DNA from: Shigella phage SFPB
Sequence record: OQ031072
Length of the DNA stretch: 64,000 bases
Direction: 5' to 3' (one strand)
Part shown: one piece after another, positions 52,100 through 57,863 of the stretch
How the letters are laid out: each line of letters begins with the position of its first letter
Position numbering within the stretch: position 1 is the first letter of the stretch
The notes under the pieces: model-generated
The model's database searches: none
Told to the model about the DNA's origin: nothing
The model's input: the letters and a program-made list of their open reading frames with translations, nothing else
Translations under genes and position numbers: made by a program

Positions 52100-52176
52100 T
52101 CTCCATTTAGCTCAGCTTGGTAGAGCGTTCCGTTTGGGGCGGTAAGGCCGAAGGTTCAAGTCCTTCAATGGAGACC
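52100..52176 (+). tRNA. tRNA-Pro (anticodon TGG)
   Basis: Hand-folded cloverleaf; C1-G72; T-arm GAAGGTTCAAGTCCTTC; encoded CCA. Confidence 0.6.
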
Positions 52177-52182
52177 AAATTA

Positions 52183-52260
52183 TATTCCCGTAGACAAATT
52201 AGGTAAAGTCAACACCCTTTCAAGGTGTGGTTTGAGGGTTCAAGTCCCTTCGGGAATGCC
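52183..52260 (+). tRNA. tRNA-Glu (anticodon TTC)
   Basis: Acceptor ATTCCCG/CGGGAAT; anticodon loop CTTTCAA; encoded CCA. Confidence 0.6.
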
Positions 52261-52267
52261 AGTTTTG

Positions 52268-52337
52268 ACAGAAGGCCAATTACAGCAAACAAATTTTTCA
52301 ATTTCGCGCATAGAAATCCAAAAAAAGATTTGGTCTG
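52268..52337 (+). ncRNA. conserved hairpin element copy 1
   Basis: CAGAAGGCC...TACAGCAAACA...TGGTCTGG; one of four paralogous elements. Confidence 0.3.
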
Positions 52338-52349
52338 GTCATTAAGAAT

Positions 52350-52426
52350 TGCGGGTATAGAGAAAGGGCGTCTCACATGTCTCATTAGCATGGTATCGGT
52401 AGGTTCGACTCCTACACCCGCCTCCA
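52350..52426 (+). tRNA. tRNA-Met/Ile2 (anticodon CAT)
   Basis: Anticodon stem CATGT/GCATG, loop CTCATTA; T-arm GTAGGTTCGACTCCTAC; CCA. Confidence 0.55.
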
Positions 52427-52432
52427 AATTTA

Positions 52433-52497
52433 CAGAAGACCGTTTACAGCAAACACTTAAAATTTTTTATCGGAAAAAATAAAAAGATACGGTCTGG
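52433..52497 (+). ncRNA. conserved hairpin element copy 2
   Basis: CAGAAGACCGT...TACAGCAAACA...ACGGTCTGG. Confidence 0.3.
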
Positions 52498-52509
52498 TAA
52501 TACTAACAT

Positions 52510-52586
52510 GGTTAGGAAGCACATAAGGCATGTGCGGTCGGCTGTTAACCGAATGGTACAGGGTTCGAATCCCTGACTAACCGCCA
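52510..52586 (+). tRNA. tRNA-Asn (anticodon GTT)
   Basis: Loop CTGTTAA; T-arm CAGGGTTCGAATCCCTG; G73; CCA. Confidence 0.6.
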
Positions 52587-52655
52587 AGATTTGGGAGAGA
52601 AGCGATTGCTCACCGATTTGTAAGGTGCAAGTCCTTAGCCTGAATAGAATAAAAT

Positions 52656-52743
52656 GCGTCGTTATCCCGTAGATGGAAGCGGTGGTGACTGTAAATCACT
52701 TGTCATTATGACTCGGTAGGTTCGACTCCTTCACGGCGCACCA
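52656..52743 (+). tRNA. tRNA-Tyr (anticodon GTA), long variable arm
   Basis: Loop CTGTAAA; variable arm GTCA..TGAC; A73; CCA. Confidence 0.6.
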
Positions 52744-52749
52744 AATAAA

Positions 52750-52826
52750 GGTTATGTAGTTTAACTGGATAAAATACCTCCCTGTCACGGAGGAAGATGA
52801 GGGTTCGATTCCCTTCGTAACCGCCA
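52750..52826 (+). tRNA. tRNA-Asp (anticodon GTC)
   Basis: Anticodon stem CCTCC/GGAGG, loop CTGTCAC; G73; CCA. Confidence 0.6.
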
Positions 52827-52859
52827 AATTATAATAAGTATTTCAAAATGATGTTTGAG

Positions 52860-52886
52860 AGGGCTTTTTAGCCCCTCCCTTAAAGA
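52860..52886 (+). terminator. hairpin + T-run within tRNA array
   Basis: GAGGGCT-TTTTA-GCCCCTC. Confidence 0.35.
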
Positions 52887-52912
52887 GTTCTTACGAGTAT
52901 TCTTTAAAGGAG

Positions 52913-52986
52913 CAGAAGACCAAATACAGCAAGCAATTTTAATATTTCAAGCCAATTTAATTTGAAAAATTTAAAACTTGGTCTGG
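52913..52986 (+). ncRNA. conserved hairpin element copy 3
   Basis: CAGAAGACCAA...TACAGCAAGCA...TTGGTCTGG. Confidence 0.3.
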
Positions 52987-53000
52987 TTCCAACAATTTTA

Positions 53001-53126
53001 CAGAAGACCGTTTACAGCAAACAATAAACAATCTATTTCTCTGGTAAAGAAAAGGCGAAGGTTCGATTCCTTCACACGTTACGGCGTGTTGGTGTAATGG
53101 AAGCACTTAAGATAAATACGGTCTGG
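53001..53126 (+). ncRNA. conserved hairpin element copy 4 with internal tRNA-like T-arm
   Basis: CAGAAGACCGT...TACAGCAAACA...GAAGGTTCGATTCCTTC + ACACG-TTACGG-CGTGT hairpin...ACGGTCTGG. Confidence 0.35.
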
Positions 53127-53276
53127 TAATCCTCTTTGCAGTGACTTATGGAGCTAATATGTCGTCCCATGAGTGCCGATGAGTTTCTTGAGCATGATTC
53201 TAGATTAGCTTACTAAGAGACAACTCTACAAACCCTTTAGCAAGGTTTGCGTAGGTTACTGCAAAGATGATTTAAT

Positions 53277-55857: not shown

Positions 55858-55932
55858 GCTCGCTTAGTTTATACGGTAAAGCCCCATCCTTACAAGTTGG
55901 TGAAGAAGGTTCAAGTCCTTCAGCGAGTACCA
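55858..55932 (+). tRNA. tRNA-Val (anticodon TAC)
   Basis: Acceptor GCTCGCT/AGCGAGT; loop CTTACAA; T-arm GAAGGTTCAAGTCCTTC; A73; CCA. Confidence 0.55.
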
Positions 55933-55933
55933 A

Positions 55934-56011
55934 GTTCCAGTATCCCAATTGGCAGAGGATGCAAGCTCAAACCTTGTATTAGTGACGGTTCGAATCCGTC
56001 TTGGAACACCA
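55934..56011 (+). tRNA. tRNA with anticodon CAA (nominally Leu), short variable loop
   Basis: Anticodon stem GCAAG/CTTGT, loop CTCAAAC; T-arm GACGGTTCGAATCCGTC; A73; CCA. Confidence 0.5.
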
Positions 56012-56188
56012 AATTAGGAGATTCCTATGAAGCCTTATGGTAGACATGGTAAAGTTGAAATTGCAAGTTGTGGTTGCTGTGCTTCTCACGATGGTGAAGA
56101 AGATTATTACAAATGGCGTACAGACCATCGTAAACGCTTTCTCAGAAGAGATAAGAAGAGGGCTAGACAGGAATCTCAAAAGGATATT

Positions 56189-56265
56189 GCAGAATTAGTT
56201 CAAATGGACAGAGCAGCAACCTACGAAGTTGTTAGTTAGGGGTTCGAATCCCTTATTCTGCACCA
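56189..56265 (+). tRNA. tRNA-Arg (anticodon ACG)
   Basis: Acceptor GCAGAAT/ATTCTGC; loop CTACGAA; A73; CCA. Confidence 0.55.
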
Positions 56266-56282
56266 ATTTAAAAGGGTAGCTT

Positions 56283-56510
56283 ATGTTTAGACTTATAGTT
56301 GAAAAACACCCAGAAGATGACAAACTTGAAACAGGAAGGTTTGGAGATACATTCTTTATTAGAGTTGGCTGGAAAGCTGACCCACTCGAAGTTAAAAAGA
56401 TTGTCTACAACTTTGCTGGATTAGAACTCAAGCAAGTTATCTTTGAAACAATGTTACCAGAAAATAAGGATACATGTAATAACGCATATATCCTGACAAG
56501 AGTTCGTTAG
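56283..56510 (+). CDS. hypothetical protein within tRNA array
   Basis: ORF track 75 aa. Confidence 0.4.
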   Translation: MFRLIVEKHPEDDKLETGRFGDTFFIRVGWKADPLEVKKIVYNFAGLELKQVIFETMLPENKDTCNNAYILTRVR

Positions 56511-56583
56511 GGATTAGTTTACACGGTTAAAACCTCGGTCTTTGAAATCGAAGAAGATGGTTCAACTCCATCATCCCCCGCCA
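56508..56583 (+). tRNA. tRNA-like, anticodon TTG (Gln?), imperfect acceptor stem
   Basis: Anticodon stem TCGGT/ATCGA, loop CTTTGAA; T-arm GATGGTTCAACTCCATC; terminal acceptor pairs mismatched. Confidence 0.35.
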
Positions 56584-56585
56584 AT

Positions 56586-56664
56586 GCTCCATTACTCCAA
56601 TTGGCAGAGAGGCCAGACTTAAAATCTGCGTTATGTATCGGTTCGAATCCGATATGGAGTACCA
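56586..56664 (+). tRNA. tRNA with anticodon TAA (nominally Leu)
   Basis: Acceptor GCTCCAT/ATGGAGT; loop CTTAAAA; A73; CCA. Confidence 0.5.
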
Positions 56665-56670
56665 AATATT

Positions 56671-56746
56671 AGCAGTGTAGCATAACTGGAAATGCACCAG
56701 CCTCTGAAGCTGAAAGATTAAGGTTCAAATCCTTATACTGCTGCCA
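56671..56746 (+). tRNA. tRNA-Gln (anticodon CTG)
   Basis: Acceptor AGCAGTG/TACTGCT; loop CTCTGAA; G73; CCA. Confidence 0.55.
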
Positions 56747-56777
56747 CTTCTAAGGGTTCTTACGAGAGTCCTTAAAT

Positions 56778-56854
56778 GTGGCCTTATCATAAATGGATAA
56801 TGACCCATGCTGTGAACATGGTCTATACGGGTTCGATTCCCGTAGGTCACCCCA
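56778..56854 (+). tRNA. tRNA-His (anticodon GTG)
   Basis: Anticodon stem CCATG/CATGG, loop CTGTGAA; C73; CCA. Confidence 0.6.
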
Positions 56855-56861
56855 ATTTAAT

Positions 56862-56937
56862 AGCTCAATTAGCTTATATGGTTAAAGCGCGTGTCTGAAA
56901 AACATGAGAACAGGGTTCAAATCCCGATGGGCTACCA
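56862..56937 (+). tRNA. tRNA-Phe (anticodon GAA)
   Basis: Loop CTGAAAA; A73; CCA; T-stem weak. Confidence 0.5.
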
Positions 56938-56953
56938 ACTTTATAGGTGCATA

Positions 56954-57688
56954 ATGAAAGAGATGACAGAACAAAGTAAAGAGATTTTTAATCTCCTTAA
57001 AACCGGTAATGGTTTCTCAAACCCTCTTATTACTGGTGCAGCAGTTCTTGGTGGTACAGTTGCCGCTTCTCAGTCATTAGTAACTTCTATTGGTTCTGTA
57101 TCAGACCCAGCCACACAGCAAATTCTTATTGCTGCTGGACTGACAACAGCCTTATTAGGAAGCTTCACAACAAGCCTTGGAAGTACAACTTCAACGACAA
57201 GTACACTCACTGAGTATGGACAAAAGTCTGTAGATGAGTTTTCACAGCGTATGCAGGTAGCTAAAGGCTACTCTAACGTCATGGGAGCAGTAGGTGAGCA
57301 AGTTGGATGTACACCATTTAGTGGCATTATGGGTGTAGCTACTGAGTACGGCAATAAAGCGATGGATTTGATTAATACCTCCATAGACGCTGTAAACAGC
57401 GTTCTAAGCGATTTGCAAGATGCAATCGATAAAGGACTAGGGACAATCTCTGAACTCGCTACACAGGCTGTTACAGCGATTAATGAGGGCATTGCAAAGA
57501 TTACTGCATATGCTAACGAAGTAGCTCAGATGATTGCAGATGAAGCAGCATTGATTGCAGAATACCTGAAAACAAATATTAATGGTTTCCTTGCAAATGT
57601 TCTACCAAGCTGGTTTGATGATTCATGTAAAACTGGTGTGATTGATACTATTGCAACTCCAGAGATGAAAGAAGCTCTGAACAAATAA
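56954..57688 (+). CDS. hypothetical Ala/Ser/Thr-rich protein with N-terminal hydrophobic segment
   Basis: ATG 56954 just after tRNA-Phe (track start 56891 overlaps tRNA). Confidence 0.45.
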   Translation: MKEMTEQSKEIFNLLKTGNGFSNPLITGAAVLGGTVAASQSLVTSIGSVSDPATQQILIAAGLTTALLGSFTTSLGSTTSTTSTLTEYGQKSVDEFSQRMQVAKGYSNVMGAVGEQVGCTPFSGIMGVATEYGNKAMDLINTSIDAVNSVLSDLQDAIDKGLGTISELATQAVTAINEGIAKITAYANEVAQMIADEAALIAEYLKTNINGFLANVLPSWFDDSCKTGVIDTIATPEMKEALNK

Positions 57689-57689
57689 T

Positions 57690-57781
57690 GGAAGATTAAC
57701 CCTAAAGGTAAGGGAGCAGTTTGCTAAACTGCCAGTAACCGAGAAATCGGCGTACCAGTTCAAGTCTGGTATCTTCCTCCA
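57690..57781 (+). tRNA. tRNA-Ser (anticodon GCT), long variable arm
   Basis: Acceptor GGAAGAT/ATCTTCC; anticodon stem GCAGT/ACTGC, loop TTGCTAA; CCA. Confidence 0.6.
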
Positions 57782-57787
57782 AATTAT

Positions 57788-57863
57788 GTGTCGGTGTCAG
57801 AAATGGTTATGTGCCTGTCTGCAAAACAGGTTTATGAGGGTTCGAGTCCCTTCCGATACTCCA
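57788..57863 (+). tRNA. tRNA-Cys (anticodon GCA)
   Basis: Anticodon stem CCTGT/ACAGG, loop CTGCAAA; U73; CCA. Confidence 0.6.

Follow-up and report, generated by a model that had tools for sequence, protein, structure and literature searches.

Leucine tRNAs without a long variable arm in the tRNA gene cluster of a Felix O1-like Shigella phage

Almost all bacterial leucine transfer RNAs (tRNALeu) are of type II (PMC6614811), and recent papers treat bacterial tRNALeu as class II molecules (PMC6614811, PMC7609411). Here we describe three tRNALeu genes that encode short molecules lacking the long variable arm. They lie within a large tRNA gene cluster in a 64,000-nucleotide (nt) stretch of Shigella phage SFPB (record OQ031072), referred to below as the window. 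The nearest literature consists of a study of Streptomyces coelicolor (PMC6614811) and a remark on mycobacterial tRNA clusters (PMC6582537). In S. coelicolor, a type-I tRNALeu(CAA) coexists with type II tRNALeu and a single leucyl-tRNA synthetase (LeuRS), and U8-A14 is an identity element (PMC6614811). That tRNA is chromosomal and needs a domain of its own LeuRS, whereas the phage tRNAs must work in Enterobacterales; the two are likened by description, not by sequence. Animal mitochondrial tRNALeu, also of type I, has a short variable region and uses A73 and A14 as identity elements (PMC9976931), in which it resembles the phage tRNAs. It has degenerate D and T loops and a dedicated LeuRS, whereas the phage tRNAs feature a canonical G18G19, a TTCGAAT T loop and no dedicated enzyme.

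In Escherichia coli tRNALeu, A73 is crucial, and neither the anticodon nor the long variable arm is (PMC9976931). A15-U48, G18G19 and A20a are essential to E. coli LeuRS, and variants devoid of the anticodon and variable arms stay active (PMC9976931); the same identity set is given in PMC2377443. Engineered E. coli tRNALeu variants without the variable arm (Asahara 1993, 1998; Larkin 2002, as cited in PMC9976931) are reported to be active with E. coli LeuRS. According to the same account, they retained A73, A15:U48, G18G19 and A20a, as the phage tRNAs do. These variants are laboratory constructs, whereas the phage genes occur naturally, are conserved and carry additional changes at positions 9 and 13 and within the anticodon loop.

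Among mobile elements, the tRNA cluster of phage T5 (NC_005859) is like that of the window in being a large set that covers nearly all amino acids and is interspersed with HNH endonuclease genes and stable RNAs. T5 tRNALeu(UAG) is a normal class II molecule of 85 nt, unlike the short Leu tRNAs of the window. T5 tRNATyr has a variable region that differs from that of the host tRNA (PMC13096335, PMC11555353), as the phage Leu tRNAs do; in T5, however, the arm is altered rather than lost, the function is established by experiment and the target is tRNATyr, whereas in the window the arm of tRNALeu is lost. In mycobacterial mobile tRNA clusters, the variable loop of tRNALeu(TAG) is short, that of the chromosomal isoacceptor being of the normal long form, and an HNH endonuclease gene lies inside the cluster (PMC6582537). 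Those clusters are bacterial genomic islands, not parts of a lytic enterobacterial phage, and PMC6582537 contains no analysis of identity elements or distribution. We found no description of arm-less tRNALeu in phages in the literature searched, a partial search that may have missed an earlier report; such molecules are also absent from the reviews in that literature that deal with non-canonical tRNAs and with tRNA identity.

The three genes belong to a dense series of tRNA genes (Table 1). ARAGORN reported 25 tRNAs at 52101-57863 with default settings, all on the + strand, and exactly 27 in the cluster at a 90% threshold, which added Tyr(GTA) and Trp(CCA). Rfam model RF00005 recovered 23 of them at its gathering score. 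With permissive filters, His and Trp also exceeded that score; Tyr stayed below it, and in relatives tRNAscan-SE annotations place a Tyr tRNA at the corresponding position. Only two low-threshold ARAGORN calls fall outside the cluster in the window, both inside or antisense to coding sequence, and 27 cloverleaves in 5.8 kilobases (kb) far exceed what chance would produce. CCA is encoded in 26 of the 27 tRNAs, the exception being Ser(TGA), the 3' end of which reads GCC-T; in Lys(TTT), ACCA is present once the Rfam register is applied. Long arms are retained in the same cluster by the Tyr tRNA (15 nt) and the Ser tRNAs (90 and 92 nt in total).

A preliminary description, made from the letters of this DNA, had counted 27 tRNA genes, most with encoded CCA, and the count agrees with the results of ARAGORN at the 90% threshold and Rfam. 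Every anticodon that it listed was reproduced by ARAGORN, and the identity features it named (G3.U70 in Ala, C73 in His, U73 in Cys and C1-G72 in Pro) are visible in the ARAGORN folds. The statement that the anticodons cover all 20 amino acids stands if at least one of the two tRNAs with a CAT anticodon is tRNA-Met, as relatives annotate, and falls otherwise, because the two, both of which have U73, are not assignable to Met, formyl-Met (fMet) or Ile2 from sequence.

Leu(TAG) and Leu(CAA) are 78 nt long, CCA included in the former, and Leu(TAA) is 79 nt long. Their variable regions are UGUUU (5 nt), AUUAGU (6 nt) and GUUAUGU (7 nt), respectively. None of these forms a stem, and all fall short of the class II variable stem-loop of more than 10 nt; the corresponding regions have 13-15 nt in E. 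coli leuW, leuX and leuZ and 13 nt in T5 Leu(UAG). Parsed into their elements, the three molecules read as follows: Leu(TAG), GGGAGAU UG ACGGUAAUUGGUAAACCU A CCAUC CUUAGAA GUUGG UGUUU GAGGG UUCGAAU CCCUU GUCUCCU A CCA; Leu(CAA), GUUCCAG UA UCC-CAAUUGGCAGA-GGA U GCAAG CUCAAAC CUUGU AUUAGU GACGG UUCGAAU CCGUC UUGGAAC A CCA; Leu(TAA), GCUCCAU UA CUC-CAAUUGGCAGA-GAG G CCAGA CUUAAAA UCUGC GUUAUGU AUCGG UUCGAAU CCGAU AUGGAGU A CCA. The 7-nt anticodon loops, CUUAGAA, CUCAAAC and CUUAAAA, have U33 and Leu anticodons, and A73 is followed by an encoded CCA in each molecule. The combination that defines a type-I tRNALeu, that is, a short unpaired variable region, a Leu anticodon and A73, is therefore found in all three.

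Infernal, which is independent of ARAGORN, aligned Leu(TAG) and Leu(CAA) full-length to a tRNA model with a short variable region. The preliminary description had noted three Leu-type tRNAs with A73 and no long variable arm, and had offered faulty folding as one explanation. The concurrence of the two programs on the short regions rules out a folding artefact, and the software run that it had proposed as a check yielded neither long arms nor other anticodons for these genes. ARAGORN and Infernal resolve the extra nucleotide at the acceptor/D junction of Leu(TAG) differently; the ARAGORN register is favoured because CCA then falls right after A73.

The core of the molecules is of the Leu type. 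All three have U8, an AAUUGG motif in which G18G19 are placed as in E. coli tRNALeu, an A after G19-Y20 and, as the last variable nucleotide, a U that is the partner of A15. Leu(CAA) and Leu(TAA) feature a 3-base-pair (bp) D stem and an 11-nt loop, CAAUUGGCAGA, comparable to the E. coli D arm GCG-AAAUUGGUAGA-CGC. In Leu(TAG), U8, UAAUUGGUAAA and U48 are present, and the core elements are kept at the sequence level despite an irregular D stem. Position 9 is G in Leu(TAG) and A in the other two.

Megablast of positions 52000-58000 against 50,697 phage records gave matches in 440 records. The best (92-97% identity) were Shigella phages Sf19, Sf17 and Sf13, Citrobacter phages and Escherichia and Salmonella Felix O1-like phages. 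Sf19 belongs to Mooglevirus within the Ounavirinae, and the same succession of tRNAs is annotated in its record, three tRNA-Leu of 77-79 nt called by tRNAscan-SE among them. Judged by these matches, the window comes from a Felix O1-like phage (Ounavirinae, Mooglevirus), and the region represents its tRNA gene cluster. There is nothing unusual in the cluster as such: hundreds of relatives carry it in annotated form, and it is already known, as the Sf19 record lists the same series.

Five relatives were examined: Sf19, Alf5 (Felixounavirus), FG1m, Erwinia phage phiEa21-4 (Kolesnikvirus) and Pectobacterium phage Arno162. The Leu tRNAs of all six Ounavirinae, the window included, are exclusively short (77-79 nt in the five relatives); E. 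coli leuW, leuZ and leuX have 85-87 nt and T5 Leu(UAG) 85 nt. Leu(CAA) is identical in the window, Sf19 and Alf5. Relative to the window, Leu(TAG) of Arno162 shows paired changes in both the acceptor stem (GGGAGAU/GUCUCCU to GGGUGGU/GCCACCU) and the anticodon stem (CCAUC/GUUGG to GCUUC/GUAGC), and this ortholog shares the unusual D arm and the U.U mismatch with the Leu(TAG) of the window. In Sf19, the slot before Lys(CUU) is occupied by another short Leu(UAG), the D arm of which has the canonical Leu form, and this swap of one short Leu(TAG) for another argues for selection on decoding function.

Two further Leu genes of the relatives deserve mention. FG1m carries a hybrid gene (positions 6071-6148 of the stretch examined, L003) of which the 5' two-thirds are identical to Leu(CAA), and the T arm and acceptor strand at the 3' end match Leu(TAA) exactly. 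The sequence between both genes has been deleted, apparently by recombination through the shared GGUUCGAAUCCG, and pairing of the acceptor stem is lost. In phiEa21-4, a short-arm tRNA-Leu (positions 5668-5745 of its stretch, L004) has the anticodon AAG, and three short Leu(AAG) occur in the viral contig sample described below. Bacteria normally have A34 in the anticodon of tRNA-Arg(ACG) only, where it is deaminated to inosine.

To place these tRNAs in a wider context, IMG/VR was scanned for the D-loop/T-loop pattern at class I spacing. The scan returned at least 120 loci, and ARAGORN found 1,127 tRNAs in the 120 listed; the pattern matched mostly non-Leu tRNAs (Thr, Lys, Trp). In the 82 loci that had been chosen via a non-Leu tRNA, 23 of 62 Leu tRNAs (15 loci) are short and 38 are long. 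Across the 120 viral loci listed, 74 Leu tRNAs are short and 45 long, as against 1 short and 74 long for Ser and 1 short and 30 long for Tyr. Leu is the only bimodal isotype in these loci, and isotypes outside class II are each at least 93% short. The short form accounts for roughly a third to 60% of Leu tRNAs in the sampled viral contigs, percentages that are rough because the survey was seeded by a pattern and IMG/VR contigs are not all verified phages.

We assembled 90 short Leu tRNAs (77 unique sequences, 54 loci, Ounavirinae included) and 49 long ones. A73 is present in 82 of the 90 short and 47 of the 49 long molecules, and U48 in 82 and 43, respectively; A14-A15 are kept in both classes, and the commonest D arm has 17 nt in both. 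Over 20 stem positions, the 77 unique short sequences are 95% paired, compared with 57% ± 1% in 500 shuffles of the 3' partners, a control that ignores relatedness among sequences in which the diversity of pair types is large. Four to six pair types occur at 19 of the 20 stem positions, the invariant G53-C61 being the one with a single type, and the covariation is that of a functional cloverleaf. The short molecules fall into two structural families. The commoner one has A9 and C13 and includes Leu(CAA) and Leu(TAA) of the window; the other has a host-like G9 and G or A at position 13, features mostly UAG anticodons and includes Leu(TAG).

Bacterial genomes, one per species, were scanned for the A9/C13-type D arm at class I spacing, which gave at least 120 loci. 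Among the matches listed, 118 of 119 tRNAs carry Leu anticodons. Fifty are solitary genes, many of them in Actinomycetota, such as Leu(UAA) of Corynebacterium and Mycolicibacterium, and others sit in arrays of up to 34 tRNAs in 8 kb. Short tRNALeu in phages, in Actinomycetota and in bacterial arrays therefore represent a widespread natural type and no peculiarity of this phage. The arm-less Leu tRNAs are real, conserved and under clear purifying selection. They had been described as unusual type-I Leu-decoding tRNAs; the type-I assignment is borne out, but for phages they are not unusual, the short form being common in Ounavirinae and in viral contigs.

The three tRNAs are probably functional Leu isoacceptors charged by the host LeuRS, as judged from the elements that they retain. 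No LeuRS-like open reading frame (ORF) was found in the window, where tblastn with E. coli LeuS gave only noise (E = 6). LeuRS-like matches occur in 74 of the 50,697 phage records, with no Ounavirinae among the 25 of these 74 matches listed. An enzyme encoded by the phage is thus ruled out for the window and rare in phage records; therefore, if charging occurs, it must be carried out by the host enzyme. Charging by enterobacterial LeuRS fits best because the three genes are under strong selection in phages of E. coli, Salmonella, Shigella, Citrobacter, Erwinia and Pectobacterium. The charging identity, initially called uncertain, is less so than was implied, as A73, A14, A15:U48, G18G19 and a Leu-type D arm are kept, a set that reportedly suffices for E. 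coli LeuRS (PMC9976931), and as TTA and TTG codons occupy invariant Leu columns of a conserved phage protein, as described below. In the mechanism that we propose, the long variable stem-loop would have been lost while A73, U8-A14, the A15:U48 Levitt pair, G18G19 and the 3-bp D stem with its 11-nt loop were kept. Host LeuRS would charge the short tRNAs with leucine, and UUA, UUG and CUA, with their wobble partners, would be decoded by them. Loss of the arm would be tolerated by LeuRS, which may act independently of the arm, while the seryl- and tyrosyl-tRNA synthetases (SerRS and TyrRS) use it. This difference between the enzymes would explain why Leu is the only one of the three class II families that is short in phages. 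Tolerance is the simplest reading of the loss and matches the isotype pattern of the viral contigs.

Several observations weigh against charging by the host enzyme. Purified E. coli LeuRS failed to leucylate the natural type-I tRNALeu(CAA) of S. coelicolor and is described as charging type II tRNALeu only, a Streptomyces-type leucine-specific domain being needed for the type I molecule (PMC6614811). This result and the work on minimal tRNAs point in opposite ways, and the doubt is real. Leu(TAG) departs from the regular form: an additional nucleotide separates its acceptor and D stems, the D stem is shifted or contains C.C, the anticodon stem includes a U.U pair, and its Rfam score is the lowest of the three (40 bits). 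The anticodon loops differ from those of the host isoacceptors, with A37 in place of G37 (UAG) and C38 in place of A38 (CAA). Host modification of the phage tRNAs (m1G37, i6A37/Cm34) may differ because positions 37 and 38, judging from recognition by TrmD and MiaA/TrmL, are changed. The roughness of the survey percentages counts on the same side.

The failure of E. coli LeuRS with the Streptomyces molecule, like the several irregular pairs of Leu(TAG), would be expected if the short tRNAs were poor substrates or non-substrates of enterobacterial LeuRS that act as decoys, primers or processing signals or are decaying relics. The fused FG1m gene, with its CAA 5' part and TAA 3' part, shows that these genes can rearrange. 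We consider this explanation improbable. The cloverleaf is kept with compensatory changes across Ounavirinae genera and in 77 unique sequences, CCA is encoded, A73 and the Leu-type D loop are retained, and all three anticodons match codons that are enriched in the phage. Moreover, it is the slot of the irregular Leu(TAG) that Sf19 has filled with another short Leu(TAG).

Codon use was compared between 61 non-overlapping ORFs of at least 100 codons in the window (G+C content 38.9%) and a 49-kb E. coli sample of limited size in which ribosomal genes are abundant. TTA makes up 24% of Leu codons in the phage and 11% in the E. coli sample, TTG 15% and 11%, CTA 8% and 2.5%, CTT 27% and 13%, and CTG 20% and 49%. 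TTA, TTG and CTA are thus enriched 1.4- to 3-fold, and AGA, TCA, AAG and GTA are also enriched relative to the host sample. The three Leu anticodons match overused codons and in this respect conform to what is usual for tRNA genes carried by phages. In a 40-sequence alignment of the protein family of the ORF upstream of the cluster, TTA encodes the invariant Leu264 and Leu301, and TTG encodes Leu333 (92% Leu). CTA columns of the same alignment are 60% Leu and 95% Leu, Ile, Val, Met or Phe. The position of TTA and TTG at conserved Leu columns indicates that these codons mean Leu, and recoding is unsupported by this check.

The same alignment bears on whether one or more of the tRNAs might be charged with another amino acid, for example Leu(TAG) with that of Val(TAC), resulting in recoding or ambiguous decoding. 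Leu(TAG) and Val(TAC) share the arm CCAUC-CUUAxAA-GUUGG, including the U.U mismatch, so that 20 nt are identical except for the third anticodon base; the likeness of the two stems (CCATC/GTTGG) had been pointed out in the preliminary description and is confirmed in the window. Both tRNAs have A73, and the class I shape removes one barrier to synthetases specific for class I. In the relatives, however, the likeness is not maintained. The Val arm is changed in Alf5 and Leu(TAG) is not; in Arno162 it is the Leu(TAG) arm that has changed, in a compensatory manner, and Val still reads CCAUC/GUUGG. Concerted evolution or a shared identity of the two tRNAs is ruled out by this loss, and the resemblance is therefore uninformative on charging. 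E. coli valyl-tRNA synthetase reads A35 and C36. Base 36 of the TAG tRNA is G. No G3.U70 or other foreign identity mark is present in the short Leu tRNAs, while the Leu-type AAUUGG D loop, A15 and U48 are. Together with the alignment columns occupied by TTA, TTG and CTA codons, these features make charging with another amino acid highly improbable.

A further possibility, which would add to tolerance by LeuRS rather than replace it, is that loss of the arm is adaptive and allows escape from nucleases or toxins, of the host or of competitors, that recognise or cut class II tRNAs at the long arm or at a host-type anticodon loop. We hold this to be rather unlikely, and equally so its corollary that leucine decoding would continue once host tRNALeu has been destroyed. 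There are precedents: Retron-Eco7 PtuAB and Septu cut the variable loop of tRNATyr, and T5 tRNATyr escapes through a different loop (PMC13096335, PMC11555353). Phage tRNAs are also reported to evade anticodon nucleases by loop changes (reference 45 as cited in PMC13056530), and the Leu tRNAs of the window deviate from their host counterparts at positions 37 and 38. Repeated loss is hinted at by the existence of at least two structural families (A9/C13 and host-like G9/G13), and a HEPN retron effector produces tRNALeu fragments. On the other side, no nuclease aimed at the variable arm of tRNALeu was found in the literature search, Retron-Kva2 cutting the anticodon loop. The same short tRNALeu is solitary and apparently native to the chromosome in many Actinomycetota, where an anti-defence role is not obvious, and in this phage the arms of the Tyr and Ser tRNAs are retained, although tRNATyr is known to be targeted. 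That arm-less tRNALeu form one or more mobile lineages spread by phages and selected as invisible to arm-recognising nucleases or toxins is, accordingly graded, a doubtful proposition. If it were true, the conflict over E. coli LeuRS would be resolved toward charging via the retained D-loop/Levitt-pair core.

Apart from the Leu genes, several features of the cluster can be described (Table 1). The promoter-like site directly upstream of the first tRNA is the best in the region, although the total count of such sites is not above chance; its position just before the cluster is suggestive, and the cluster is probably transcribed from it and from further internal promoters. The first CAT tRNA has U73 and a U1.C72 mismatch. 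In the second, the three consecutive G-C pairs of the anticodon stem are at 28-30, not 29-31. The Met, fMet and Ile2 tRNAs of E. coli have A73. tRNA-Ser(GCT) has U73, whereas tRNASer of E. coli has G73. This G73 is an antideterminant against LeuRS and TyrRS (PMC9976931).

Two HNH endonuclease-like ORFs interrupt the series. The second appears frameshifted, with an N-terminal Cys-rich part that starts at 55269 in another frame, and it is probably a homing-endonuclease insertion, because the flanking Gly and Thr tRNAs are adjacent in Sf19. A 70-codon ORF with a Cys-rich N-terminus and no Pfam match overlaps tRNA-Arg(ACG) by 51 nt, and the same overlap is annotated in Sf19 (gp26). The gene-free interval between Ile(GAT) and Arg(TCT) gave three overlapping, weak matches to Rfam models of the transfer-messenger RNA (tmRNA) type, all far below gathering scores, and includes a good promoter-like site; it may encode another stable RNA.

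Table 1 Features of the tRNA cluster and its surroundings in the window
Feature	Position	Strand	Evidence or remarks
ORF, 471 residues, predicted Ro60-like fold	50520..51935	+	Pfam DUF2828 and DUF7788; PHROG 850 'RNA-binding protein'
Sigma-70-type promoter-like site, TTGACA-18-TATAGT with TG	52044..52073	+	11/12 matches
tRNA-Pro(TGG)	52101..52177	+	ARAGORN; Rfam 58.8 bits
tRNA-Glu(TTC)	52184..52261	+	ARAGORN, Rfam
Repeat 1, candidate Y RNA	52264..52345	+	
tRNA with CAT anticodon (Met, fMet or Ile2)	52350..52426	+	ARAGORN; no Rfam match; tRNA-Met in Sf19 record
Repeat 2, candidate Y RNA	52428..52503	+	
tRNA-Asn(GTT)	52510..52586	+	ARAGORN, Rfam
tRNA-Tyr(GTA), 15-nt variable arm	52656..52743	+	ARAGORN 90%; Rfam 22.8 bits; Tyr in relatives
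tRNA-Asp(GTC)	52750..52826	+	ARAGORN, Rfam
Repeat 3, candidate Y RNA	52908..52992	+	
Repeat 4, candidate Y RNA	52996..53132	+	
tRNA-Lys(TTT)	53277..53351	+	ARAGORN; Rfam register 53277-53348, then CCA
tRNA with CAT anticodon, second copy, U73	53433..53509	+	ARAGORN, Rfam
tRNA-Ile(GAT)	53512..53587	+	ARAGORN, Rfam
Interval with weak tmRNA-type matches	53530..53834	+	tmRNA_permuted 29.9 bits, E 0.003; alpha_tmRNA E 0.003; tmRNA E 0.001
Promoter-like site	53603..53631		
tRNA-Arg(TCT)	53835..53911	+	ARAGORN, Rfam
tRNA-Trp(CCA)	54083..54153	+	ARAGORN 90%; Rfam 32.6 bits
HNH endonuclease-like ORF, first	54168..54572	+	Below Pfam cut-off for AI2M-like_HNH
tRNA-Ser(TGA), long variable arm, sole tRNA without full encoded CCA	54586..54675	+	ARAGORN, Rfam
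tRNA-Leu(TAG), short type	54931..55008	+	ARAGORN fold; Infernal 40 bits
tRNA-Lys(CTT)	55016..55091	+	ARAGORN, Rfam
tRNA-Ala(TGC), G3.U70	55098..55173	+	ARAGORN, Rfam
tRNA-Gly(TCC)	55180..55254	+	ARAGORN, Rfam
HNH endonuclease-like ORF, second	55269..55683	+	Passes PF01844, E 4e-5
tRNA-Thr(TGT)	55685..55761	+	ARAGORN, Rfam
tRNA-Val(TAC), anticodon arm as in Leu(TAG) except base 36	55858..55932	+	ARAGORN
tRNA-Leu(CAA), short type	55934..56011	+	ARAGORN; Infernal 44 bits
70-codon ORF	56027..56239	+	
tRNA-Arg(ACG)	56189..56265	+	ARAGORN, Rfam
tRNA-Gln(TTG)	56508..56583	+	ARAGORN, Rfam
tRNA-Leu(TAA), short type	56586..56664	+	ARAGORN; Rfam 46.1 bits
tRNA-Gln(CTG)	56671..56746	+	ARAGORN, Rfam
tRNA-His(GTG), C73	56778..56854	+	ARAGORN; Rfam 49.3 bits
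tRNA-Phe(GAA)	56862..56937	+	ARAGORN, Rfam
tRNA-Ser(GCT), long variable arm	57690..57781	+	ARAGORN, Rfam
tRNA-Cys(GCA), U73	57788..57863	+	ARAGORN, Rfam

The 471-residue ORF lies directly upstream of the tRNA cluster. AlphaFold2 gave a predicted local distance difference test (pLDDT) score of 89.8 for its product with the 40-sequence alignment and 40.7 with the single sequence. In Foldseek searches, the eight best PDB matches of the model were all Ro60 proteins, including that of Thermus phage phiLo (E 8e-9 to 2e-7; template modelling (TM) scores 0.53-0.62 over more than 500 columns). A Ro60-like fold, consisting of a HEAT-repeat ring and a vWA domain with a DxSxS MIDAS motif, is thus confidently predicted. 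Searches of PDB sequences with phmmer and a profile found nothing significant, TROVE proteins appearing only at E = 2.2. Homologs are widespread in phages (2,450 matches) and occur in or beside the tRNA clusters of unrelated phages, namely in 8 of the 120 tRNA-selected viral loci listed and in two others (L251 and L253).

Four repeats are located between the tRNAs near the start of the cluster, each with ...UUACAGAAGACCGU-UUACAGCAAACA at the 5' end and ACGGUCUGGUAA at the 3' end. In the fold of each, a terminal stem is followed by an internal loop, small and asymmetric, and then by a 7-bp stem (AGACCGU/ACGGUCU or AGACCAA/UUGGUCU) that closes a large loop, and UACAGCAA is conserved. The fourth repeat contains four hairpins in this order: one like an anticodon arm, one like a T arm (GAAGG-UUCGAUU-CCUUC), a closed one that is acceptor-like and one like a D arm. 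The same layout is found in the tRNA-like Y RNA YrlA (PMC4201824). Alf5 shows a compensatory change in the acceptor-like hairpin. The Ro60-like gene and the repeats are present together in the window, Sf19, Alf5 and FG1m, and both are absent from the stretches of phiEa21-4 and Arno162 that were examined.

Similar elements were sought with a simple finder (a 7-bp stem usually starting with AG, followed by 1-4 nt and CAGCAA). In loci with a Ro60-like gene (126 kb), the finder detected 41 elements on the gene strand and 8 on the other, with differing stem sequences, which corresponds to an approximately 5-fold enrichment on the gene strand beside Ro60-like genes of unrelated phages. Viral loci lacking the gene gave a background of 0.065 per kb and strand, and bacterial loci one of 0.04. 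Twelve of the long copies of the element contain a T-arm-like hairpin. Rfam, including its YrlA model, gave no match to the four repeats. Ro60 with Y-like RNAs is known in phages, namely in mycobacteriophages, CcrColossus, Bacillus phage G and Thermus phage phiLo; in the papers searched, we encountered neither the DUF2828 family nor Felix O1-like phages in this context, and no account of the four repeats. We regard these repeats as candidate Y RNAs of the phage.

In function, the arm-less Leu tRNAs are most likely ordinary, and they are members of a widespread class that is barely mentioned in the literature searched. Their recognition is relevant to annotation, because isotype models may score such tRNAs poorly, and they may serve as compact scaffolds for engineering. 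A large family of E. coli, Salmonella and Shigella phages that possess only arm-less Leu tRNAs contrasts with the textbook view of tRNALeu as class II. These phages would offer a natural test set for what LeuRS truly needs of its tRNA, for why class II arms persist and for whether arm loss may act as a counter-defence.

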